Shown here: positions 6,553 to 33,727 of the stretch, one piece after another
Layout of the letters: each line of letters opens with the position of its first letter
How positions within the stretch are numbered: position 1 is the stretch's first letter
DNA from: an uncultured Prevotellaceae bacterium
Lineage (GTDB): Bacteria; Bacteroidota; Bacteroidia; Bacteroidales; Muribaculaceae
Assembly: GCA_900317835.1 (NCBI GenBank)
Contig: ONIL01000007.1
Span: 3,527 to 67,526, forward strand
Reading direction: 5' to 3'
Length of the DNA: 64,000 nucleotides
Notes under the pieces: generated by a model
Seen by the model: only the letters and a program-made list of their open reading frames with translations
Told to the model about the DNA's origin: nothing
Databases searched by the model: none
Translations under genes and position numbers: made by a program

Positions 6553-6560
6553 TACTTTTG
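6553..6560 (+). promoter_or_regulatory. Bacteroidetes sigma-A -7 element (TACTTTTG) for the DUF5689-like gene
   Basis: Matches TAnnTTTG; context nearly identical to the promoter at 10258. Confidence 0.7.
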
Positions 6561-6621
6561 CGGCCAATTTAAAACAAGGTAGTGATGTACTGGTGTTATA
6601 TCTACACACTTTTTATAAAAA

Positions 6622-6730
6622 GTAGCGGGGAAACGATAAAACCGTTCTTCAAACCGCTGCGACATGCTGACGCTACCACTGGCTGCGCTTCATTAGATGG
6701 AATAGACCGCTAATGTGGCGCGATTTTTTT
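6622..6730 (+). promoter_or_regulatory. Structured 5' leader, copy 1 (stem-loop plus terminator-like hairpin); candidate riboswitch/attenuator
   Basis: GTAGCGG/CCGCTGC stem 6622-6660; hairpin 6685-6721 followed by T7 at 6724-6730; paralogous copy at 10333-10444. Confidence 0.7.
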
Positions 6731-6789
6731 GGATGTTGTTGCCCATTTGGGCATTGCTTATATCACATACTATTTATTTTTTCAGAACT

Positions 6790-8238
6790 ATGCAACACAA
6801 AGCCAAATTCTCCATGTTGGCAGCGATGTCCTGTAAGGATTCGACTGCATGGTCCCTGTCGGCAGTGCGTCACGACCGACGACTCTTCAAGCGCTTGCTC
6901 ATTTACTGTGGAATGCTATTCATGCTGGTTATTGCCACCTCGTGCAACGAGGAATTCGACATTCCACCGATGAAGTCCCCTCCCCCTCCCAACATGTCCA
7001 TCGCCGAGTTCAAGGCCAAGTACTGGCGCGACACGGTTAACTACGTTGACACCGTTCAAGACAACGATATCATCCACGGCTGGATCACCAGCACCGATGA
7101 GACGGGCAACATTTACAACACCATCTACATCATGGATGAGTCGGGCGTTGGGCTGCCCATCGCCGTGAGCAGCAGGGACATGTACACCCGATATCGCCTT
7201 GGAGCCGAAGTCGTATTGGAGATGAAGGGATATCATGTGGGCAAAATCACAGGCATGATGCAAGTGGGAGCACCCTACTTCTACAAGAACACTAATGTGT
7301 GGGAAACCAGCACCATGAATGAAGACACCTGGAAAAAACTGGGTCAAGTCAACGGATTTCCCGACTTGAGCAAGGTGGATACCACCGAGATCACCCTTGA
7401 TCAAATCCTAGGCAAAAACGACGCCGAGACCCTCATCAAATATCAGGGGTTGCTGGTGCGCATCAATGATGTGACCTTTGAGAACGCCAATGGCATAACC
7501 ACTTATTCCGATAAGAATCAAACGGTCAACCGCCGCATTGCGGACAGCAACGGCAAGAAACTGAATGTGCGCATGAGCAACTATGCCACCTTCGGCGATT
7601 CCATCCTGCCCAAGAGCGGTGTCGATATCGTGGGCTTGTTGGGCTACTTTGCCACCAAGGCTAACCCCAACGATCCATGGCAAATCTATCTGCGCACCAT
7701 CGATGATGTGATTGTTCGCCCGCCTCGCCCCGTGACGTGGGCCGATTTTGAGACCATCAGCGGGCACACCACCAATATGGGGACCTTTACCACCGAGGCC
7801 GGATGGGTGGCCACAAACTGCATGATGTTTGAAGGCGGCGACAAGGATGCCAATCCCGTTTTCGCCTTTATCGGCACAGCCACTAACAAACTCGCCACCT
7901 ACGCCAAGGCCCCGACCTTGAACGGTGGCACCGATGCCGTGGGGACTGTCGTCTCGCCTGTTCTTAACGGCGGCATGACGCGTCTGCGGTTTTCCTACGG
8001 CTACGCTTTCTCAGGCAAACAGCTTGCTTGTCGCGTCGATGTCAAGCAGAACGGCACGGTGGTCAAGTCATGGACGGTCGCCAATAATGACGTACAGACT
8101 AAAACCGCCTATTCCTTTGATGAGGAATGCCGTGTGGAGGGCGAATTCACCATCGAGTTCACTAACCTTTGCCCATCGGGCAAAACAGGCAAGACCGACC
8201 GGTTATCGATCTGGAACATCAACTGGGATATTGAATGA
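6790..8238 (+). CDS. DUF5689-like OB-fold surface lipoprotein
   Basis: Lipobox IATSC-NEEFD; IHGWITSTDETGNIYNTIYIMDESG, LVRINDVTF, VRMSNYATF and VDIVGLL motifs recalled for DUF5689 proteins; start uncertain (6790 or 6913). Confidence 0.75.
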   Translation: MQHKAKFSMLAAMSCKDSTAWSLSAVRHDRRLFKRLLIYCGMLFMLVIATSCNEEFDIPPMKSPPPPNMSIAEFKAKYWRDTVNYVDTVQDNDIIHGWITSTDETGNIYNTIYIMDESGVGLPIAVSSRDMYTRYRLGAEVVLEMKGYHVGKITGMMQVGAPYFYKNTNVWETSTMNEDTWKKLGQVNGFPDLSKVDTTEITLDQILGKNDAETLIKYQGLLVRINDVTFENANGITTYSDKNQTVNRRIADSNGKKLNVRMSNYATFGDSILPKSGVDIVGLLGYFATKANPNDPWQIYLRTIDDVIVRPPRPVTWADFETISGHTTNMGTFTTEAGWVATNCMMFEGGDKDANPVFAFIGTATNKLATYAKAPTLNGGTDAVGTVVSPVLNGGMTRLRFSYGYAFSGKQLACRVDVKQNGTVVKSWTVANNDVQTKTAYSFDEECRVEGEFTIEFTNLCPSGKTGKTDRLSIWNINWDIE

Positions 8239-8301
8239 ACGTTTTCCTCATGACACTTGCAAGAGTGAGATAAAACTAGTATCTTTGCGGTTGATGAAGT
8301 G

Positions 8302-8898
8302 ATGGAGAACAAATATGAAAATATCATCATTGGCATCGACCCCGGCACCAACGTGATGGGATATGCCCTGCTGGGGGTGAACGACAAGACACCACAACTC
8401 ATTGTCATGGGCGTGCTGCAGCTCAACCGCATGGAGGACCATTACATGAGGCTGAGGCACATCTATGAGCGCGTGAGCGGCGTGATTGCCGAGTACATGC
8501 CCGACGAGATGGCGATCGAGGCTCCGTTCTACGGCAAGAACGTGCAGTCAATGCTCAAACTGGGACGCGCCCAGGGCGTGGCGATGGTCGCAGCCTTGAA
8601 CCGCGAAATTCCCATCACCGAGTATGAGCCGCGCAAGATCAAAATGGCCATCACGGGTAACGGTGCAGCCAGCAAGGAACAGGTGGCGATGATGCTGCAA
8701 CGCACGCTGCACATCGACGAGGCCCAGATGCCCGCCCTACTCGACGCCACCGATGCCCTTGCCGCCGCCTTGTGCCACTTCTATGAGCGCCAAAAGCCCA
8801 TCTCCAGCCACGGCACCAAGTCCTGGAAGGCTTTCATTGCCCAACATCCTGACCGCGTGTCCAACCGCTCAAAAGAGCCCACCGCCAAGGCGCAATAG
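8302..8898 (+). CDS. ruvC: Holliday junction resolvase RuvC
   Basis: [33 protein letters not shown]. Confidence 0.97.
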
Positions 8899-8964: not shown

Positions 8965-10194
8965 ATGAAAAAGTTATCATTATTATTGTTTCTTGCCCTC
9001 CTTTGGGCTGCGGCCACCCCTGTGCTGGCCGGCTCCACGTTAAATGCCAACCCCGAAAAGAGGGTAATACCGACGACTGGAGTTTTTTATGATGTAGTGT
9101 GCATGTCAGATGTATATGATGTCACAGATACTAATGATGGTTACCTGATAGAGCCATCAGCACCGTCACAGTGCGGCATGCTGGCATTTTGCCGAGAAGA
9201 GGACGACCTCATGTTTGTTAGTCTCTTCAATGACCTCATGCTCATCGAGATTGACCGCGACAACATGAGCGCATTGCTCAATGAAAACTACTCAGAGGAC
9301 AGCAATGTCTCGACATCAGGCTTGCAGACGGTCACCACCGAGATCCACTACTACCTCTACTCAGAAGACTGCTTGAATGGTTTCCATGAAGAATCCAGCC
9401 CAGTGCAGGGCCACATTAATCCCGATGGATCAATCTCATTTGACAGTTTCGTTGTGGAGACCGAGCGCATTGTCACCATTACCAACAGTTGGTCCCATCA
9501 ATTGATTTCATCCGAGACGACAACCAGCCGCAACCTCTACCGCAGCATGGTTTTGGCCAAGCCCAACGGAGTTCACCGCTTCAACAAGCCTGCTGAGCCC
9601 GATCCGGGAACCGTGCAGCCAATGAGTAATGGTTTCGACAATCTGCCGAGGATTGTGCCCGTTTACATCGTTCAGCGCGACGACACGGTCATGGTGTGGA
9701 ACCTCTATAACATGGGAGGATTCAACCGCATGGTCATCGACAACGGTTTCTTTGACTGGCCATGGCAGCAGTGCGGCTATAACGAGGATGGTGGCTGCTG
9801 GTACAATTACACGGCCTATCGTTCCTATACACCCCAAGGAGAACCCATGCTTTCGGTAGTAACCTATCTGCACCGTCTGCAAGGAGTAAAAGGCAAGGTG
9901 ACACAGGATGGAATGACATGGGGCAACACCACATTTGGCAACGGCAAGGGAGTATGGTCGGCCGATATATTCTGCGACAACACCTTGACTTTCAAAGACA
10001 AGAGCTTTGACTTCACACCCACGGTTTGGAACATCAGCGACGTGACACGGGTGATTGACGGCATCTTGACCAGTGCTCCCGAAATCATCCTCCTGCCATC
10101 CAGTGACCCGAATGATGATGGAGACGTGGACATCAGCGACGTCACTTGGCTCATCGACAGGCTTCTCCTTGGCAATCCCGACAACGGTCAATAG
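8965..10194 (+). CDS. Secreted protein with degenerate C-terminal dockerin
   Basis: SPI signal peptide (AATPVLA); C-terminal NISDVTRVID...DPNDDGDVDISDVTWLIDRLL. Confidence 0.75.
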   Translation: MKKLSLLLFLALLWAAATPVLAGSTLNANPEKRVIPTTGVFYDVVCMSDVYDVTDTNDGYLIEPSAPSQCGMLAFCREEDDLMFVSLFNDLMLIEIDRDNMSALLNENYSEDSNVSTSGLQTVTTEIHYYLYSEDCLNGFHEESSPVQGHINPDGSISFDSFVVETERIVTITNSWSHQLISSETTTSRNLYRSMVLAKPNGVHRFNKPAEPDPGTVQPMSNGFDNLPRIVPVYIVQRDDTVMVWNLYNMGGFNRMVIDNGFFDWPWQQCGYNEDGGCWYNYTAYRSYTPQGEPMLSVVTYLHRLQGVKGKVTQDGMTWGNTTFGNGKGVWSADIFCDNTLTFKDKSFDFTPTVWNISDVTRVIDGILTSAPEIILLPSSDPNDDGDVDISDVTWLIDRLLLGNPDNGQ

Positions 10195-10257: not shown

Positions 10258-10265
10258 TACTTTTG
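10258..10265 (+). promoter_or_regulatory. Sigma-A -7 element (TACTTTTG) for the TonB-dependent transporter operon
   Basis: TAnnTTTG match in an AT-rich intergenic region. Confidence 0.7.
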
Positions 10266-10328
10266 CAGGCGAAAATATGACGCGTTTTTAAAGTGAAAAT
10301 ACATTCTTTTGGCATACCCTTTAGGATA

Positions 10329-10444
10329 TCTTGTAGCGGTGAGGCGGCAAGCCAGTTCTATAACCCGCTGCAAGAAAGTATAGCCAGCAACACACGCGCC
10401 ACATTAGACGGGGGATATTCCGCTAATGTGGCGCGAATTCTTTT
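10329..10444 (+). promoter_or_regulatory. Structured 5' leader, copy 2; candidate riboswitch/attenuator
   Basis: TCTTGTAGCGG/CCGCTGCAAGA stem; CGCGCCACATTAG-A-CGG/CCG-CTAATGTGGCGCG hairpin 10395-10435, then ATTCTTTT. Confidence 0.7.
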
Positions 10445-10517
10445 GTCAAAAAGCAATAGAAACAAACAATTTTTTAATAATTCATCATTTTTTCATTCAC
10501 TTAAACAAGTTTTTAAC

Positions 10518-13500
10518 ATGTTGAGAACAGTAAAGCTTTTAGCATTGGTGGCAATGTTCTTTGTAGCATTGTCGTCAAGCGCTCAGGTGACGACCTCGGC
10601 ACTGTCGGGTGTTGTGACCGATGAAAACCAGCAGGCGATGATTGGTGCTACGATTACCGCCCTGCACACCCCTTCGGGCACGAAGTACAACGCCGTGACC
10701 AATATGGACGGCCGTTACACCATCCAGGGTATGCGTCCTGGTGGCCCGTACACCGTGACGGTGAGCTATGTGGGCTATGAGTCCCGCAGCATTAATGGGG
10801 TGTCACTGCAACTGGCCGAGACCTCAAATCTTGACTTCGACATGAGTGTTGACGCTAATGCGCTGGGTGAAGTTGTCGTTACCGCGGCTGCCACCAAGTT
10901 CAGGGCTGAAAAGACCGGTGCTGCTACCAATATCAACAGCGCACAGATCACCAATCTGCCCACCGTGACCCGCAGTCTGACTGACATTACCCGCCTGTCG
11001 CCCTACGGTGGTAACGGCATGAGCTTTGCCGGTACCGACGGTCGTACCGCCAACTTCACGGTCGATGGTGCAAACTTCAACAACAACTTCGGTTTGAGCG
11101 ACAATCTGCCTGGTGGTGGCAACCCCATCAGCATTGAAGCCATCGAGGAGATGCAGGTTGTGATTTCACCCTACGACGTTCGTCAGACCAACTTCATTGG
11201 TGGTGGTGTGAATGCTGTGACCAAGAGCGGTACCAACAAATTCCGCGGCAGTGCTTACATCTTCCACCGCAACGAGAACATGCGTGGTGATGCTGTTGAG
11301 CGCACCCAAATCGGTCAGGCACGCGAGAAATTCAAGGTGACTACCTACGGTGCTACCATCGGCGGCCCGATCATCAAGGACAAGCTGTTCTTCTTTGTGA
11401 ACGGTGAGATGACCAAGCAACCGACCATCGTCAACATGTGGCGTGCTTCACAGAACGGTGTTGCCGTTCCTGACCAGTACATCTCTCGCACCTCCCTGGC
11501 CGACCTGGAGCGCGTGAGCAATTTCGTAAAGAGCAAATATGGCTATGACACGGGTTCATGGACCAACTTCCCCGCCGACGAGAACAACTACAAGCTGCTC
11601 GCCCGCCTGGACTGGAACATCAACCATGACCACCACTTGGCCCTGCGCTACAACTACACCAAGAACCGCTACTGGAGCAATCCCAACGCCACCTCGATGG
11701 ACGGTGGCACCCGTATGGCTACTGCCCGTGTATCTCAGAAGTCCTTCTCGTTTGCCAACTCAATGTATGGCATGGACAACCTGGTACACTCCTTCTCATT
11801 TGACCTGAACAGCCGCCTGAGCGACAACCTGTCGAACCAGTTCCTGGCTACCCTGTCTAAGCTGGACGACATCCGCGCCAGCAACTCGAGCGAGTTCCCC
11901 TTCATCGACATCACCATGACCGATGAGAATGGCGACACCGACAACTACATGGCCCTGGGTTATGAGTTGTTCACCTGGAACAACGCCGTTCACAACACCA
12001 TCTGGAACCTGCGTGACGACGTGACCTGGTACTATGGTAACCACAAGATCATGGGTGGTCTGTCATTTGAGCATCAGATGGCCGACAACCAGTACATGCG
12101 CAATGGTACCGGTTACTACCGCTACAACAGCGTTGACGACTTTATCAACGGTGCCGCTCCCGAGGTCGTTTGCTTGACCTACGGTTACGGTAGCGAGACC
12201 AAGCCTGCTGCCCGCGTGCAGTTCAACAAGGCTGGTATCTATGCTCAGGACGAGTGGAACGTGACCAAGAACTTCAAGCTGACCTACGGTCTGCGTCTGG
12301 ATGGTCTGTTCTTCAATAATGGTGACCTGATCACCAACAACGCCATTCTGGCCCTTGACTACTATGACAACGACGGCAACGTCCGCCACATCGACACCGG
12401 CAAGTGGCCGAGCAGCAACCTGATCGTGCAACCCCGCTTGGGCTTCAACTGGGACGTATTTGGCAACAAGGCACTCAGGGTGCGCGGTGGTACGGGTCTG
12501 TTCTCGGGCCGTCTGCCCCTGGTATTCTTCACCAACATGCCCACCAACGGTGGTCTGGTTCAGTATCAGGCACAGCTCAACAGCAAGAACACCGACATGA
12601 GCCTGTTTGCTGGCGGTCTTGTAACTGACTCCGAGGGACATGCCACTATCACAGCCCTGCGCAACAAACTCATCGAAATGGGTTATCCCGAGAACGTGAC
12701 TTCCGACATGGGTACTGTTCCCTCGGCTGTCAATGGTGTGGATCCCAACTTCAAGATGCCGATGGTATGGAAGACCTCATTGGCTGTTGATTACCAGATT
12801 CCTGTATCGTTCCCCTTCAGCGTAACTATCGAGGGTATCTTCAACAAGAACATCAACGCTGCCAGCATCAGCGACTGGTCTATCCCCAGCGTGGGTGGTT
12901 ATGCACGCTTCAACGGTGCTGACAACCGTCCCATCTATCCCGCCGGTTTCCGCACGGGAACCAAGGCCTTCGTCCTGGAGAACACTAGCCGCGGTTATGG
13001 CTGGATTGGCAACATCACCTTGAATGCTGATCCCACCGACTGGTTGAGCCTGATGGCTGCCTATACCCACACCGTGCAGAAGGAAGTCACCGGTATGCCC
13101 GGTAGCGCTGCTGAGAGTGCCTTCACCTATGTTCCCACCATTGAGGGTCCCAACAACATCAAGCTGCACAACTCGCAGTATGTAACTCCTGACCGTTTCA
13201 TCTTCTCGGCAACCGGTCATGACCACAGCGGTAACCACTACGGCCTGATTTATGAGGCTTGGCGTGGCGGTTACAACTACTCCTACATGATGGCCAACGA
13301 CATGAACGGCGACGGCTACAACTACGACGCACTCTACATCCCCACCGACGAGCAAGTGGCCAACCGCGAGTTCCGCTTCGTGAGCGAGGGTGACAAGAAC
13401 CGCTTCATGGACTATGTACACGCCAACGACTACCTGAAGAACCATCAGGGCGAGTATGCCGAGGCCTATAGCCTGTACAATCCCTGGGTTCACCGCATCG

Positions 13501-13802
13501 ACCTGAGCTACAAGCACGACTTCAATGTGAACGTGTGCGGCGCTAAGCACACCCTGCAGCTGCTCTTTGACGTGAAGAACGTCTTGAACCTGTTCAACTC
13601 GAGCTGGGGCGTGAGCAAGTATCTCAATCCCGAGATCGGCAGCGATCCCCGCATCCTCAAGTATGAGGGCGTTGACGCACAGGGTTACGCCACCTTCTCG
13701 ACTCCCAAGTCGATCGACGGTGCCACCAAGACCTTCGTTCCCAACAAGGCCATCGGTCAGTGCTGGAATGCATCTATCGGTATTAAGTACATCTTTAACT
13801 AA
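10518..13802 (+). CDS. TonB-dependent transporter (Oar-like, with N-terminal carboxypeptidase-regulatory-like domain)
   Basis: SPI (SSSA-Q), LSGVVTDE..MIGATI N-domain, plug motif GRTANFTVDGANFNNNFGL / GGVNAVTKSGTN, C-terminal IGIKYIF; ATG 10518 preferred over GTG 10293. Confidence 0.92.
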   Translation: MLRTVKLLALVAMFFVALSSSAQVTTSALSGVVTDENQQAMIGATITALHTPSGTKYNAVTNMDGRYTIQGMRPGGPYTVTVSYVGYESRSINGVSLQLAETSNLDFDMSVDANALGEVVVTAAATKFRAEKTGAATNINSAQITNLPTVTRSLTDITRLSPYGGNGMSFAGTDGRTANFTVDGANFNNNFGLSDNLPGGGNPISIEAIEEMQVVISPYDVRQTNFIGGGVNAVTKSGTNKFRGSAYIFHRNENMRGDAVERTQIGQAREKFKVTTYGATIGGPIIKDKLFFFVNGEMTKQPTIVNMWRASQNGVAVPDQYISRTSLADLERVSNFVKSKYGYDTGSWTNFPADENNYKLLARLDWNINHDHHLALRYNYTKNRYWSNPNATSMDGGTRMATARVSQKSFSFANSMYGMDNLVHSFSFDLNSRLSDNLSNQFLATLSKLDDIRASNSSEFPFIDITMTDENGDTDNYMALGYELFTWNNAVHNTIWNLRDDVTWYYGNHKIMGGLSFEHQMADNQYMRNGTGYYRYNSVDDFINGAAPEVVCLTYGYGSETKPAARVQFNKAGIYAQDEWNVTKNFKLTYGLRLDGLFFNNGDLITNNAILALDYYDNDGNVRHIDTGKWPSSNLIVQPRLGFNWDVFGNKALRVRGGTGLFSGRLPLVFFTNMPTNGGLVQYQAQLNSKNTDMSLFAGGLVTDSEGHATITALRNKLIEMGYPENVTSDMGTVPSAVNGVDPNFKMPMVWKTSLAVDYQIPVSFPFSVTIEGIFNKNINAASISDWSIPSVGGYARFNGADNRPIYPAGFRTGTKAFVLENTSRGYGWIGNITLNADPTDWLSLMAAYTHTVQKEVTGMPGSAAESAFTYVPTIEGPNNIKLHNSQYVTPDRFIFSATGHDHSGNHYGLIYEAWRGGYNYSYMMANDMNGDGYNYDALYIPTDEQVANREFRFVSEGDKNRFMDYVHANDYLKNHQGEYAEAYSLYNPWVHRIDLSYKHDFNVNVCGAKHTLQLLFDVKNVLNLFNSSWGVSKYLNPEIGSDPRILKYEGVDAQGYATFSTPKSIDGATKTFVPNKAIGQCWNASIGIKYIFN

Positions 13803-13825: not shown

Positions 13826-15343
13826 ATGAAACTCAAATATTTTATTTCGTTTTTTGCACTGGTAGCCCTCTTGTCGAGCTGCTCGGATGACGATGCGATG
13901 ACATTGTTTGATGAGATTCAGGTTTCGTCGTCCTATGTGGCCATTGATGAGGCTGGTGGATCTAACACGATTACCCTCAACGCCAAGGAAGCTTGGACGT
14001 TTGACTCCGAGGAACTGCCCGAATGGTTGACCGTCAGCCCGATGAACGGTGGTGCCGGTGAGACTAACGTGACCTTCAGCGCTGAAGCTGCCCCCGACGG
14101 CCGCACCGCTGTCCTCCACATTGCTTGTGGCGACAAGAAGCAGACCATCAACGTGATCCAGGGTCTTGCTACCGTTAGCGAGGCTACTTGCGCCGAGGTC
14201 ATTTCAGGCCCCGAGAGCAAAACCTACCGTGTGACCGGTACCGTGAAGTCGATTGTTAACACGACCTACGGTAACTGGTATCTGGAAGATGAGACCGGCG
14301 AGGTATACATCTATGGAACGCTGGATGCCAAGGGTGGCACCAAGAACTTCCTGAGCTGGGGCATGGAGGTTGGTGACATTGTCACCGTCGAGGGTCCCAA
14401 GACCGTTTATAACGGTACTGTAGAGCTGGTTGACGTGACCGTCATCAATATCCAGAAGTCGCTCGTCAAGGTCGAGGGTTATGACCCCGAGGATGCTACC
14501 ATTCCTTTGGAGGGTGGCAACGTGGCCGTTAGCCTGAGCTGCAAGACCAACAACGGCATCTCGGTCGAGATTCCCGAGGATGCCAAGAGCTGGCTGGGCA
14601 TCGTCTCCATCACTGGTGGCGCTGAGCCCGTGGTAACCTTCCATGCCAATGCCAACAATGGCGGCGACCGCAGCACTACTGTAGTCTTCAAGACCACCGA
14701 TGACAAGGGCAAGGAATACACCGCCCAGGCAACTATTTTCCAGAAGGGCGCTATCGTTGCTTGCTCGATTGCCGAGTTCCTGGAGGCTCCTGTGGGCGAC
14801 ACCCAGTACCGCATCACTGGTGTGATCACCCAGGTAGCTAACCCCACCTATGGCAATGTTTACGTTCGTGACTGGTCTGGTGAGACCTACGTCTACGGCA
14901 TCGGCGCCAAGGGTGACTTTGAGGCTGCTGGTCTCAAGGTTGGCGACGTTGTGACCCTCGTGGGTAAGCGCGGCGAGTACAAGGGCGATCCTCAGATGAC
15001 TGGCGCGATCCTCGAGGCCAGCATCCCCGTGACCCCCATCGACATCGACTCGTTCCTGGATCAGCCCGATGATCCCAACACCTACTACATGCTGACGGGT
15101 ACCATTACCGAGATTGCCAACCCGACCTACGGCAACCTCTACCTTGAGGACGAGACCAACTCGGTATATGTCTATGGTACTTATCCCGGATGGGGCGCTA
15201 CTGGCGACAACCGCAAGAATTGGCTTGAGACCGCAGGTATTGAGGTCGGCGACAAGCTCTCGGTTATCGGCGTCAAGAGCACCTATAACGGCACTCCGCA
15301 GTTGGCCAACGGCATCTACTTCTCTCACGAGAAGGCCCAGTAA
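13826..15343 (+). CDS. Surface lipoprotein with BACON domains and three OB-fold repeats
   Basis: Lipobox LLSSC-SDDD; BACON-like WLTVSP/WLGIVS segments; three repeats of (Y/R)xxTGxIxxIxNxTYGNxYLxDxTGxVYVYG...VGDxVT. Confidence 0.8.
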   Translation: MKLKYFISFFALVALLSSCSDDDAMTLFDEIQVSSSYVAIDEAGGSNTITLNAKEAWTFDSEELPEWLTVSPMNGGAGETNVTFSAEAAPDGRTAVLHIACGDKKQTINVIQGLATVSEATCAEVISGPESKTYRVTGTVKSIVNTTYGNWYLEDETGEVYIYGTLDAKGGTKNFLSWGMEVGDIVTVEGPKTVYNGTVELVDVTVINIQKSLVKVEGYDPEDATIPLEGGNVAVSLSCKTNNGISVEIPEDAKSWLGIVSITGGAEPVVTFHANANNGGDRSTTVVFKTTDDKGKEYTAQATIFQKGAIVACSIAEFLEAPVGDTQYRITGVITQVANPTYGNVYVRDWSGETYVYGIGAKGDFEAAGLKVGDVVTLVGKRGEYKGDPQMTGAILEASIPVTPIDIDSFLDQPDDPNTYYMLTGTITEIANPTYGNLYLEDETNSVYVYGTYPGWGATGDNRKNWLETAGIEVGDKLSVIGVKSTYNGTPQLANGIYFSHEKAQ

Positions 15344-15365: not shown

Positions 15366-15399
15366 AAAAGGGGAGTCACCATCACGGCGACTCCCTTTT
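15366..15399 (+). terminator. Intrinsic terminator after the TBDT-lipoprotein operon
   Basis: AAAAGGGGAGTCACC-atcac-GGCGACTCCCTTTT. Confidence 0.8.
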
Positions 15400-15414: not shown

Positions 15415-15441
15415 GCACGTCTCACGACGTGCCACCCTGCG
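15415..15441. repeat. 27-bp REP-like palindromic repeat, copy 1
   Basis: GCACGTCTCACGACGTGCCACCCTGCG, identical to 15610-15636; internal GCACGT/ACGTGC hairpin. Confidence 0.8.
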
Positions 15442-15542: not shown

Positions 15543-15574
15543 TTTGCACGTTTCAATTATTATCACTACCTTTG
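15543..15574 (+). promoter_or_regulatory. Sigma-A promoter (TTTG-N20-TACCTTTG) of the phosphodiesterase gene
   Basis: Both -33 and -7 consensus elements with a 20-nt spacer. Confidence 0.75.
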
Positions 15575-15609: not shown

Positions 15610-15636
15610 GCACGTCTCACGACGTGCCACCCTGCG
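15610..15636. repeat. 27-bp REP-like palindromic repeat, copy 2
   Basis: Exact direct repeat of 15415-15441. Confidence 0.8.
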
Positions 15637-15746: not shown

Positions 15747-16952
15747 ATGATGATGCGAAGAATTTACCTTTTTATTTTGTTGGCAGCCGTGTTGCCATGG
15801 CAGGCATGGGCGGCAGGAAGTGACACTTACACGGTGATCATCTCGCTCGACGGCCTGCGGTGGGACTATCTCGACACCTATGACGTGCCATTCTTGAACC
15901 AGCTGGCGCGCGAGGGTGTCAAGGCGGTGATGCAACCGTCATTCCCGAGCAAGACGTTCCCCAACCACTACACGCTGGCGACAGGTCTCACGCCCGACCA
16001 CCACGGCATCATTGCCAACACCTTTTGGGATCGTGAAAAGGGCGTTGAGTTCTCATTGGGCAACAAGGTGACTCGTGCCGATGGCAGTTACTACGGCGGC
16101 GACCCCGTGTGGCTCACGGCCAAGCATCAGGGCGTGAAGACCGCCACCGTGTTTTGGGTGGGTAGCGATGTTGCCGTCAATGGAGAGCATCCCACCTACT
16201 GGCGTGACTACCAAACAGAGCAACTCGGCTTTGAGGAGCGTGTCGATGAAATCATCCGCCTGTTCAAGTTGCCCGAGAAGGACCGTCCCCACCTGGTGAT
16301 GGCCTACTTTGAGGAGCCTGACCGCAGCGGCCACAACTACGGACCGATGAACAGGTTGACACGTCGTGCGATGGAGGACATGGACCTGCTGTTGAGCAAC
16401 CTGTGGGCCCGCATCCAGTTACTGCCCATTGCCGACAAGGTGAATTTCATCATCACGGGCGACCACGGCATGACCAGCGTGGACCCCAAGCGATTTGTCG
16501 ATATCGACGACGTGGTGCCCAAGCAGTGGTATGACCGCTTCTGCAACGACTACCCCACCCTCATCTATGCCAGCGCGCCCGAATACATTGACTCGATTTG
16601 TAACGCATTGCGGGGTGTGGACCACATCCGCGCTTGGAAAAAGCAAGATGTGCCTGCCTATCTGGGTTACGGCACCAACAAGAACATGGGCGATGTGGTA
16701 GTGCTGCCCGACGTGGGCTGGCTCTTTGCCGACAAGCCCAGCAAGAAACAGCGCGGCAGCCACGGCTTTGACCACATGGCTGCCGACATGCAGGTGGGAT
16801 TCCGCGCCGTCGGTCCTGACTTCAAGGTGGGCTATGAGAAACCTGACCGCTTCCGCAACGTGTGCATCTATCCGCTGTTGTGCTACCTGCTAGGGGTAAC
16901 GCCATCGCCCAACGACGGCTCTCTTGACGAAGTGCGCGACATGCTGCGTTGA
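15747..16952 (+). CDS. Nucleotide pyrophosphatase/phosphodiesterase (alkaline phosphatase superfamily), secreted
   Basis: IISLDGLRWD, FPSKTFPNHYTLATG catalytic Thr, EEPDRSGH, TGDHGM, GSHGF; SPI signal. Confidence 0.92.
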   Translation: MMMRRIYLFILLAAVLPWQAWAAGSDTYTVIISLDGLRWDYLDTYDVPFLNQLAREGVKAVMQPSFPSKTFPNHYTLATGLTPDHHGIIANTFWDREKGVEFSLGNKVTRADGSYYGGDPVWLTAKHQGVKTATVFWVGSDVAVNGEHPTYWRDYQTEQLGFEERVDEIIRLFKLPEKDRPHLVMAYFEEPDRSGHNYGPMNRLTRRAMEDMDLLLSNLWARIQLLPIADKVNFIITGDHGMTSVDPKRFVDIDDVVPKQWYDRFCNDYPTLIYASAPEYIDSICNALRGVDHIRAWKKQDVPAYLGYGTNKNMGDVVVLPDVGWLFADKPSKKQRGSHGFDHMAADMQVGFRAVGPDFKVGYEKPDRFRNVCIYPLLCYLLGVTPSPNDGSLDEVRDMLR

Positions 16953-18724: not shown

Positions 18725-18936
18725 AATGTCAGCATTTATAGGTTAATAAAAATAGAATAATCATCACACATATTAGTATTAAGGCGCTTCAGAAATCGCA
18801 CTTCACAAAAACAGCCTTATAGATAATGTCTCATTTTGGCGACATCATCGGTTAAGAATTCATGCTGCGAAAATAAATAAAAAAAACGAACTATTGTAGT
18901 GATGGCTATAATAAGTGTAGTAGGGGTACAAAAAAA

Positions 18937-19034
18937 GGGCAAGTGAGCTACAGCGCGCCGCTACAACCTCGTTACCCTTGCTCCGGTCAAGGCCTGGGGG
19001 ATTGGGAGGGAGCTGGCCGTGTAGGACTTACCCG
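18937..19034 (-). ncRNA. ffs: Signal recognition particle (4.5S) RNA
   Basis: Minus strand reads CGGGUAAGUCCUAC...CCCCAGGCCUUGACCGGAGCAAGGGUAAC...GAGCUCACUUGCCC: long hairpin with CAGG/AGCA SRP loops, TACCTTTG promoter just upstream and U-tract downstream. Confidence 0.85.
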
Positions 19035-19123
19035 ACTGCAAAGGTACTGCTTTTTCCCGAACTGGCAACACTTTTTACTGAAAAATATTCCAAACAAGTC
19101 TTAACCAGCTGACATCAAATGTC

Positions 19124-33170: not shown

Positions 33171-33360
33171 GACATTGGAAATTATTTCGTTTCTGTTTAT
33201 GATAATGGATGAATTTGTTTTAGTGGGGCAAAGGTAAGCAATTTCACTCAACCTCACACCATTTTTCACATCATTTTTATTAACACGACCTCGCACCATC
33301 ACTTTTTGCCTTCAAATAATTGGCCGAATCTAAAAAAAGCCCTACATTTGCATCGTGAAA

Positions 33361-33560
33361 TCAACGTGTTGAGGTTTCCTGCACGATTATGGGTTGCAGG
33401 AATCAAAAGGGAACCAGGTGAAAATCCTAGACAGTACCCGCTGCTGTAACTCCCCACAACACATCGCACGGCATCATGCCACTGGTTGCAACATCACTGC
33501 TGCATCATCACCGGGAAGGCGCCGCCGCGATGAGGGAGAAGTCAGAAGACCTGCCTCCAC
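33361..33560 (+). promoter_or_regulatory. Cobalamin (AdoCbl) riboswitch
   Basis: AGGT...AAAAGGGAACCAGGTGAAAATCCT...CCCGCTGCTGTAA...GCCACTG...GGGAAGGC...AGTCAGAAGACCTGCC (B12 box); TACATTTG promoter at 33343-33350. Confidence 0.93.
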
Positions 33561-33727
33561 ACGGCCTGTTTATCGTGGTTCACGCGGCATTTGGACCCTG
33601 GCGAAGAAAGATGATGCGGACACAAACTGCCCACATTCTCAAGAGATTACCATTTACCACCCATGGTCACTCATGCCTCATGAATTCGCGCTGAAACGTG
33701 AAGTTTAACATTATATATATTAATGAC

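Follow-up and report, generated by a model that had tools for sequence, protein, structure and literature searches.

The closest experimentally studied parallel to the leaders described here is bmrB, which controls the bmrCD multidrug transporter operon of Bacillus subtilis; its 162-nucleotide (nt) open reading frame (ORF) has a terminator within the coding region and rare codons upstream of it, and translation of the ORF is required (PMC4191407). Our subject is a 64,000-nt stretch of DNA from an uncultured rumen member of the Bacteroidales (assembly GCA_900317835.1, contig ONIL01000007.1, positions 3,527 to 67,526 of the forward strand; hereafter the window), in which a DUF5689 lipoprotein gene and a TonB-dependent transporter gene each stand behind a copy of one leader. 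Judged from the sequence, both copies are probably ribosome-mediated (leader-peptide) transcription attenuators of the bmrB or pyrBI type. The Escherichia coli pyrBI and pyrE attenuators dispense with an antiterminator and sense uridine triphosphate (UTP) through the speed of the polymerase; a ribosome close behind the polymerase blocks the hairpin. The pyrBI leader ORF, about 44 codons long, reads through the terminator without any competing RNA structure and controls nucleotide-metabolism genes. The leaders trpL, hisL and thrL are built otherwise, with 14-30 codons, runs of cognate codons, alternative 1:2, 2:3 and 3:4 pairings, and a stop before the terminator. The nascent-peptide arrest sensors TnaC, SpeFL and SecM act via Rho or translation and not via an overlapping intrinsic terminator.

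Control of TonB-dependent uptake loci in the Bacteroidales is usually ascribed to hybrid two-component systems, to SusR-like or extracytoplasmic function (ECF)/anti-sigma regulators, and to antisense small RNAs (sRNAs). Leader-peptide attenuation in Bacteroidota has only been suggested, for amino-acid operons (PMC9723704), and unverified small ORFs in long 5' untranslated regions (UTRs) have been listed in this phylum (PMC7366714). Our search of the literature found no described family of this kind of leader for Bacteroidales transporters.

How does the present locus compare with these systems? It shares with bmrB a long small ORF directly before transporter genes (37-60 codons here, 162 nt in bmrB), an intrinsic terminator in or overlapping the coding region, rare codons before that terminator and, as far as the sequence indicates, co-transcription of the small ORF and the downstream genes from a single promoter. 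Unlike bmrB, which has three alternative stem-loops including an antiterminator and answers ribosome-targeting antibiotics, the present leaders showed no conserved antiterminator and precede nutrient (nucleic-acid) scavenging genes; the two share no sequence relationship and come from different phyla. With pyrBI and pyrE they have in common a leader ORF that enters the terminator without a competing structure and genes tied to nucleotide metabolism, and the pyrBI parallel is attractive because the controlled genes look like nucleic-acid scavengers. However, the sequence of the pyrBI peptide is not known to matter, whereas the peptide here is under purifying selection, and in place of an evident U-rich pause cluster we find a conserved rare AUA codon. 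Like trpL, hisL, thrL and the Rfam family Bacteroid-trp, the leaders combine a small ORF close to the promoter, codons for scarce tRNAs as control codons (a putative role here) and an intrinsic terminator before the operon, but their ORF is longer and runs into the terminator, a 2:3 pairing is not conserved, the genes are not biosynthetic, and no Rfam leader matches. A conserved peptide in a regulatory upstream ORF and control in cis, proposed here, recall TnaC, SpeFL and SecM, although no arrest motif was recognized in the leader peptides. Transcriptional riboswitches have the same order of elements; here, in contrast, what is conserved is coding sequence with neither covariation nor a switch helix, and its phylogenetic range is narrow.

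Two leader copies in one locus

The copies lie on the + strand and represent two types, copy 1 being type B and copy 2 type A. Their parts, with the genes behind them, are as follows.

6553-6560, + strand: copy 1 promoter -7 box of the Bacteroidetes type, TACTTTTG (from sequence)
6585-6713, + strand: copy 1 small ORF, ATG start, 42 codons, TAA stop, peptide MYWCYIYTLFIKSSGETIKPFFKPLRHADATTGCASLDGIDR (from translation)
6622-6660, + strand: copy 1 predicted internal hairpin P1, GTAGCGG...CCGCTGC with inner AACG/CGTT, inside the small ORF (from folding)
6685-6730, + strand: copy 1 predicted intrinsic terminator, free energy (dG) -17.2 kcal/mol (from folding and homologue covariation)
6790-8238, + strand: DUF5689 lipoprotein gene behind copy 1 (Pfam PF18942, E = 1.6e-47)
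10258-10265, + strand: copy 2 promoter -7 box, TACTTTTG (from sequence)
10293-10445, + strand: copy 2 small ORF from GTG, peptide VKIHSFGIPFRISCSGEAASQFYNPLQESIASNTRATLDGGYSANVARILL (from translation and dN/dS)
10330-10374, + strand: copy 2 predicted internal hairpin P1, CTTGTAGCGG...CCGCTGCAAG, inside the small ORF (from folding)
10395-10444, + strand: copy 2 predicted intrinsic terminator, dG -29.4 kcal/mol (from folding and homologue covariation)
10518-13802, + strand: TonB-dependent transporter gene behind copy 2, Oar-like, with CarboxypepD_reg and OMP_b-brl_4 domains (from Pfam)

Transcripts would be expected to start at about 6566-6569 in copy 1 and 10271-10274 in copy 2. The initial annotation of the window had described two leader copies of about 110 nt, and its description was accurate. 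The gapless alignment of the two cores (6622-6660 and 10333-10371) has 28 identities in 39 positions, as read directly and recounted; a spacer of exactly 24 nt, divergent between the copies, follows on the 3' side, then a terminator hairpin with a bulged A in common and a T-tract (6724-6730 and 10438-10444). The 3' arm carries an identical 17-mer, CCGCTAATGTGGCGCGA (6707-6723 and 10420-10436), for which 0.16 occurrences are expected by chance in the window. The proposed layout of promoter, conserved element, intrinsic terminator and gene is likewise correct for both copies. A degenerate core pattern matches the window at the two copies (0.00 expected) and the whole 3.07-Mb assembly at the same two sites and no others. 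Matches to a covariance model span 6602-6733 and 10310-10446, the similarity beginning about 20 nt 5' of the core start given in the initial annotation.

In copy 1 the terminator consists of a 5' arm (6685-6696), the bulged A (6697), an upper stem and loop (6698-6709) and a 3' arm (6710-6721); the TAA of the small ORF (6711-6713) falls within the 3' arm, and an in-frame GTG is also present at 6582. In copy 2 the 5' arm is at 10395-10407, the bulged A at 10408 and the 3' arm at 10423-10435, with the T-tract as a T-rich tail. A second small hairpin, TGCCCATTTGGGCA then TTGCTTATAT, occupies 6740-6753, 10 nt past the T-tract of copy 1 and ahead of the DUF5689 start.

Homologues and their distribution

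A nucleotide BLAST of copy 1 against 40 relatives returned one partial match only (in G007). The element is too diverged for this method, and so an exact scan for the 17-mer and a covariance model were used instead. The scan, over one genome per species, gave 41 matches; 14 of them, in rumen Bacteroidales metagenome-assembled genomes (MAGs), are clearly homologous across about 135 nt. The MAGs with a homologous leader are labelled Prevotellaceae, Muribaculaceae, Sodaliphilus or RUG, and at least six are placed in the window's own genus, which is accordingly likely to be Sodaliphilus. The covariance model, trained on 16 copies, found no match outside the window's genome in an even sample of 400 other genomes from 237 genera of the order. 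Nine of 401 genomes of the family match, seven of them (the window genome included) from the window's genus; the other two matches (L083 and L084, from other genera) are weak, lack the ORF and were taken as false. Within the window's genus 46 of 133 genomes match. As a sequence family the element occurs in part of a single rumen genus, with no confirmed case elsewhere.

Many genomes carry both a strong type A copy, like copy 2, and a weaker type B copy, like copy 1, the two lying 1.4-12.6 kb and most often about 1.8 kb apart. All 45 type A copies lie about 70 nt (51-106 nt) upstream of an orthologous transporter gene, apart from one locus with a miscalled start, and these orthologues share 75-97% identity. 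Each of the nine type B copies precedes a DUF5689 gene by about 55 nt (49-121 nt); the product of that gene is about 480 amino acids (aa) long in eight cases, and in the ninth the frame is cut at 312 aa. The resemblance among leaders, present in 46 of the 133 genomes of the genus and always before the same two gene families, greatly exceeds what chance would give. The initial annotation was right that a conserved cis-leader is common to two functionally linked genes; homologues do exist outside this strain, and the same gene families follow them.

The core belongs to a small reading frame

What is being conserved in the core? The 39 nt are the N-terminal part of a small ORF under protein-level selection. 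Every true match keeps this frame open over 37 codons or more, beginning at ATG, GTG or TTG, with the start codon 14-23 nt (usually 17 or 20) 5' of the start of the covariance model. The ratio of nonsynonymous to synonymous substitution rates (dN/dS; Nei-Gojobori, 22 codons, 44 type A sequences) is 0.20 in the ORF frame, as against 1.55 and 1.19 in the two other frames, which hold 44 and 100 stops. Across 45 type A copies the entropy at codon positions 1, 2 and 3 is 0.41, 0.38 and 0.80. The synonymous variants are plain to see: Ala is written GCG, GCT or GCA (18/13/9), Gly GGT or GGA (21/18), Gln CAG or CAA (21/18), and Pro with all four codons. N-terminal insertions and deletions (indels) among type A copies measure +3, +3 and -12 nt, all multiples of three. 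Conservation starts at the start codon, which has an A-rich context at -1 to -3, and the 5' UTR between box and start is unconserved. A 4-codon mini-ORF within that UTR (10277-10291) was considered and set aside, being missing from homologues.

The type A consensus peptide reads M-x4-FGIPF(R/K)ITCSGEAASQFYNPLQE-(variable)-RAxLDGxxxANVARxLL. Type B peptides, including that of the window, share scattered positions only: [IL]PFxI, GE and F[YH]xP[LM]. Near the hairpin, indels of 1-2 nt alter the C-terminal frame and the position of the stop varies, so the C-terminus is not under protein constraint; the hairpin itself is conserved as RNA. A small ORF between promoter and structural gene with the signature of being read as protein is one mark of a leader-peptide attenuator, and the present leader has it. 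The ORF is presumably translated.

A rare codon is concentrated in the ORF. ATA makes up 5% of Ile codons in 11 genes of the window and 7% in 37 long ORFs; in the leader ORFs it accounts for 161 of 217 (74%). In type A it occupies codon 8 in 41 of 45 copies, codon 12 in 43 of 45 and often codon 3, with neighbouring codons that vary synonymously. In the window it is found at 10299, 10314, 10326 and 10380 of copy 2 and at 6615-6617 and 6636-6638 of copy 1. The leader ORFs contain no run of a single amino acid.

Arrangement of promoter, ORF and terminator

In all 53 homologues that were scored, a TAnnTTTG -7 box precedes the start codon of the small ORF by 18-36 nt. No strict -7 box occurs between terminator and structural gene, a spacer of 55-70 nt, in any of 54 copies, and the structural gene must therefore be transcribed through the terminator. 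The leader frame reads into that terminator in every one of the 54: the stop comes inside the hairpin in 13, including the nine of type B, after it in 41, and before it in none. The hairpin begins 90-108 nt, mostly 102 nt, past the start codon in types A and B alike. Type B small ORFs have 37-43 codons and stop within the hairpin in all nine model-detected cases, and reading L181 and L182 by hand gives the same. Among type A copies, 39 of 45 place the stop within the hairpin or up to 85 nt past it. The remaining six, copy 2 of the window among them, have no stop, and the leader frame continues into the transporter ORF. The window accordingly contains an ORF of 1169 codons (10293-13802), because the leader frame of copy 2 meets no stop before the transporter, and gene callers may give the transporter a false 75-residue N-terminal extension. 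Through the overlap of frame and hairpin, the position of a ribosome could influence the terminator.

Base-pair covariation was counted on 48 model-aligned copies as pairs with changes on both sides. Of the 13 pairs in the terminator helix 9 covary, as in GCGCUGUAUUUUACGG/CCGUAAAUGCAGCGC. The predicted hairpins range from -14.6 to -29.9 kcal/mol, most at -20 or stronger, and a T-rich tail follows in most copies, a few being T-poor; they would be expected to terminate transcription. The invariance of the 17-mer in the 3' arm while the 5' arm drifts can be explained by its composition, since a G/U-rich arm tolerates changes in its partner via wobble pairs. Covariation, which the initial annotation had named as a check, is solid only in the terminator; in the GTAGCGG/CCGCTGC stem of P1, 1 of 10 pairs covaries.

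Is there an RNA antiterminator? None is conserved in consensus folds computed without the terminator 3' arm or with the P1 5' arm masked. Both folds leave the terminator 5' arm unpaired, the region 2-to-region 3 consensus is empty, and the conserved 2:3 pairing of a trp/his-type attenuator was not found in them. The CGCTAC/GTAGCG alternative fold suggested for copy 1 is not conserved either. An outer helix, GGCATACC/GGTATCC, occurs in some copies, is inconsistent across the family and was rejected. The sequence UAGCGG of the P1 5' arm (6623-6628; 10334-10339) has two complements, CCGCUG in the P1 3' arm and CCGCUA at the top of the terminator 3' arm (6707-6712; 10420-10425); a long-range alternative pairing of 6 base pairs is possible, too short to call.

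Diverged leaders in the genus

The transporter orthologue is present in 124 of the 133 genomes of the genus, and the model matches only leaders of those with at least 83% identity. Upstream regions of 40 orthologues at 44-81% identity were examined. A terminator was undetected in nine of these 40, eight with short leaders and one (L143) with a leader of 215 nt. In 31 diverged leaders both a promoter and a hairpin are present, and in 26 of these an ORF at least 25 codons long enters the hairpin, whereas dinucleotide shuffles would give 6.4. Start and hairpin are again separated by about 80-140 nt, and the peptides have for the most part unrelated sequences. One feature alone is shared with many of these diverged families, an ATA near codons 6-10 that often occurs as GAC-ATA or GGC-ATA. 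Because the 31 leaders may represent a dozen or so families, the number of independent cases is lower than it seems; the excess is still clear.

A third leader type, of about 400 nt, stands upstream of other DUF5689 paralogues (L172-L180; e.g. G864:C40:116420-116940). In it a terminator-like hairpin, GAGCGCAAAACC...GGTTTTGCGCTC, precedes a conserved block, ATATGAAGGCC...GGCCTCCCGAAAAAAGTATTATAGGACCC. At least two members contain an ORF longer than 100 codons, beginning MY.(V/A)C.KY, that spans the whole leader, and these two differ in length by 51 nt, a multiple of three.

A proposed mechanism without an antiterminator

How might such a leader work? Transcription would begin at the Bacteroidetes promoter and run through a 5' UTR of roughly 10-30 nt into the small ORF, whose first ~28 codons are conserved as protein. 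About 102 nt past its start the ORF would meet the strong predicted terminator, 55-70 nt upstream of the structural gene. By default, when the polymerase is not closely followed by a ribosome, the hairpin would form and transcription would stop. A ribosome translating the leader would occupy the 5' arm and block the hairpin, and the scavenging genes would be transcribed; no RNA antiterminator would be required. The early AUA codons (3, 8 and 12 in type A), P1 and the fixed 102-nt distance would time the ribosome relative to the polymerase. Candidate signals are the speed of the polymerase, and through it the nucleotide pools, on the pattern of pyrBI; the decoding of AUA or the capacity for translation; and a nascent-peptide effect, a candidate because the peptide sequence is under selection.

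Could these leaders make up an attenuator class new to Bacteroidota? In such a class the nascent peptide and AUA, decoded by a minor tRNA-Ile, would time the ribosome, and the ribosome alone would decide read-through of a terminator 102 nt downstream, coupling translation speed, AUA decoding or nucleotide supply to a TonB-dependent locus for scavenging nucleic acids; the same logic would have been rebuilt with unrelated peptides across the genus. We regard this fuller proposal as tentative and, taken whole, rather unlikely.

Several observations sit uneasily with attenuation of the bmrB or pyrBI type. The start codon is GTG in 17 of 45 type A copies and TTG in three. In 20 of 45 the stop lies more than 30 nt beyond the hairpin, from which we conclude that the stop position is not part of the mechanism. 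Where the leader frame runs on into the transporter, an aberrant fusion protein would be produced. To our knowledge, tight coupling of transcription and translation has not been shown in Bacteroidota. Raw counts such as 54 of 54 come from related homologues and are not independent events. Finally, pure coupling does not need purifying selection on the peptide. As coupling leaves that selection unexplained, there is room for a nascent-peptide effect or a role in trans, and the selection hints at a sequence-specific role of one kind or the other.

Alternative readings

Could the ORF be a gene in its own right? A free-standing micro-protein of about 40-50 aa might act in trans, perhaps regulating the uptake system or serving as its partner, with the hairpin as its own leaky terminator; leader peptides acting in trans have reportedly been described, as in peTrpL. 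The purifying selection on the peptide (dN/dS 0.20) suits this reading, as does the motif [IL]-P-F-x-I...G-E...F-[YH]-x-P-L common to both paralogous leaders, and a profile search of 5.8 billion proteins retrieved it as a hypothetical protein in 53 metagenome clusters (unnamed, domain-less, 53-90% identity to the query, and the only matches). We nonetheless consider it unlikely. A small functional protein should have a fold or full-length conservation, and neither was found: AlphaFold2, on a 54-sequence alignment, predicts no fold (predicted local distance difference test, pLDDT, 52.7; predicted template modelling score, pTM, 0.16; no secondary structure), and the C-terminal third is free in frame and length, and in 6 of 45 copies the ORF even continues into the transporter frame. 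Moreover, the stop never precedes the hairpin, the start-to-hairpin distance is fixed, the downstream gene has no second promoter, and unrelated peptides occupy the same layout in sister clades. That the frame from 10293 marks the true transporter start, the small ORF being an annotation artefact and in fact an N-terminal extension, was rejected as scarcely credible. ORF 10293-13802 is indeed continuous in the window, and its counterparts in five other genomes are too, but a stop separates leader from transporter in 39 of 45 homologues, a typical signal peptide starts at ATG 10518 (MLRTVKLLALVAMFFVALSSSAQ), and a terminator would lie inside the supposed extension.

The initial annotation had preferred an RNA sensor. 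P1, either as part of a transcriptional riboswitch or as the site recognized by an RNA-binding antiterminator, would govern the terminator by binding a nucleoside, a nucleotide, a phosphate-related ligand or a protein. The succession of promoter, conserved stem-loop, terminator and gene invites this interpretation, and such a riboswitch would be new: in line with the initial annotation, neither copy matches a family of Rfam 15, at the gathering score or at E up to 10. Across the 48 copies P1 is 91% paired, the third positions of ACT, AGC and CAA within it show no synonymous variation, which fits an additional RNA constraint, and at the P1 location all type B copies have some hairpin, though its sequence differs. 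However, conservation of the core has a three-base period, as fits protein, and the stem barely covaries (alifold covariation term -0.08). The inner stem of P1 is not conserved, its loop nucleotides vary at wobble positions, mean folding z-scores of the region are modest (-1.0 in type B, -1.5 in type A), and no conserved antiterminator or other switch accompanies it. The element is also limited to part of one genus, and orthologous transporters in sister clades have unrelated leaders, unlike what a riboswitch aptamer would show. A ligand-binding core is accordingly improbable, and the leader peptide at 6585-6713, which had been offered as a competing suggestion, fits better. P1 is plausibly a secondary element, perhaps a pause hairpin, though support for this is weak. 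Less probable still is that the terminated leader, about 165 nt long, is itself a trans-acting sRNA, possibly dual-function as in rnTrpL, the copies being sRNA paralogues from 5' UTRs. Attenuator sRNAs are known, and the leader has its own promoter, a strong predicted terminator and a 17-mer identical in two paralogues. sRNAs derived from 5' UTRs are known as well (PMC7366714). Against this, the 17-mer is a G/U-rich hairpin arm whose asymmetry wobble drift of the partner explains, and the association in cis with two gene families is strict; an sRNA would in any case be compatible with attenuation and would not exclude it.

The genes behind the leaders

Between the two leader units of the window lie ruvC (8299-8898) and a 409-aa ORF (8965-10194) without a Pfam match. 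In G892:C5, G861:C55, G762:C11 and G896:C10 the type B leader, DUF5689 gene, type A leader and transporter follow one another directly, and about 1.8 kb separates the two leaders. Two further genes of the window follow the transporter.

13826-15343: BACON/OB-fold lipoprotein gene, 3' of the transporter (from Pfam)
15747-16952: type I phosphodiesterase/nucleotide pyrophosphatase gene with its own promoter, after the BACON/OB-fold gene (from Pfam)

The genes behind the leaders look like genes for scavenging nucleic acids (DNA/RNA). A terminator-like hairpin at about 15371-15399 closes the BACON/OB-fold gene. Beyond it a 27-nt direct repeat, GCACGTCTCACGACGTGCCACCCTGCG (15415-15441 and 15610-15636), brackets the -7 box of the phosphodiesterase, TACCTTTG (15567-15574); no leader-type small ORF occurs in that upstream region. 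Rfam matches only two elements in the window, a cobalamin riboswitch at 33355-33572 (+ strand, 102.9 bits) and a Bacteroidales small signal recognition particle (SRP) RNA at 18933-19040 (- strand, 99.7 bits).

Implications

For riboswitch hunting the locus offers a caution: paralogous leaders that appear structured and end in a terminator may owe their conservation to a hidden small ORF. If attenuation by the translating ribosome is the correct explanation, this form of control would also govern nutrient-scavenging outer-membrane systems. It would mean that attenuation can dispense with an RNA antiterminator, in a phylum where initiation is not led by Shine-Dalgarno sequences, and that a rare AUA codon would be retained as a device for timing or sensing.

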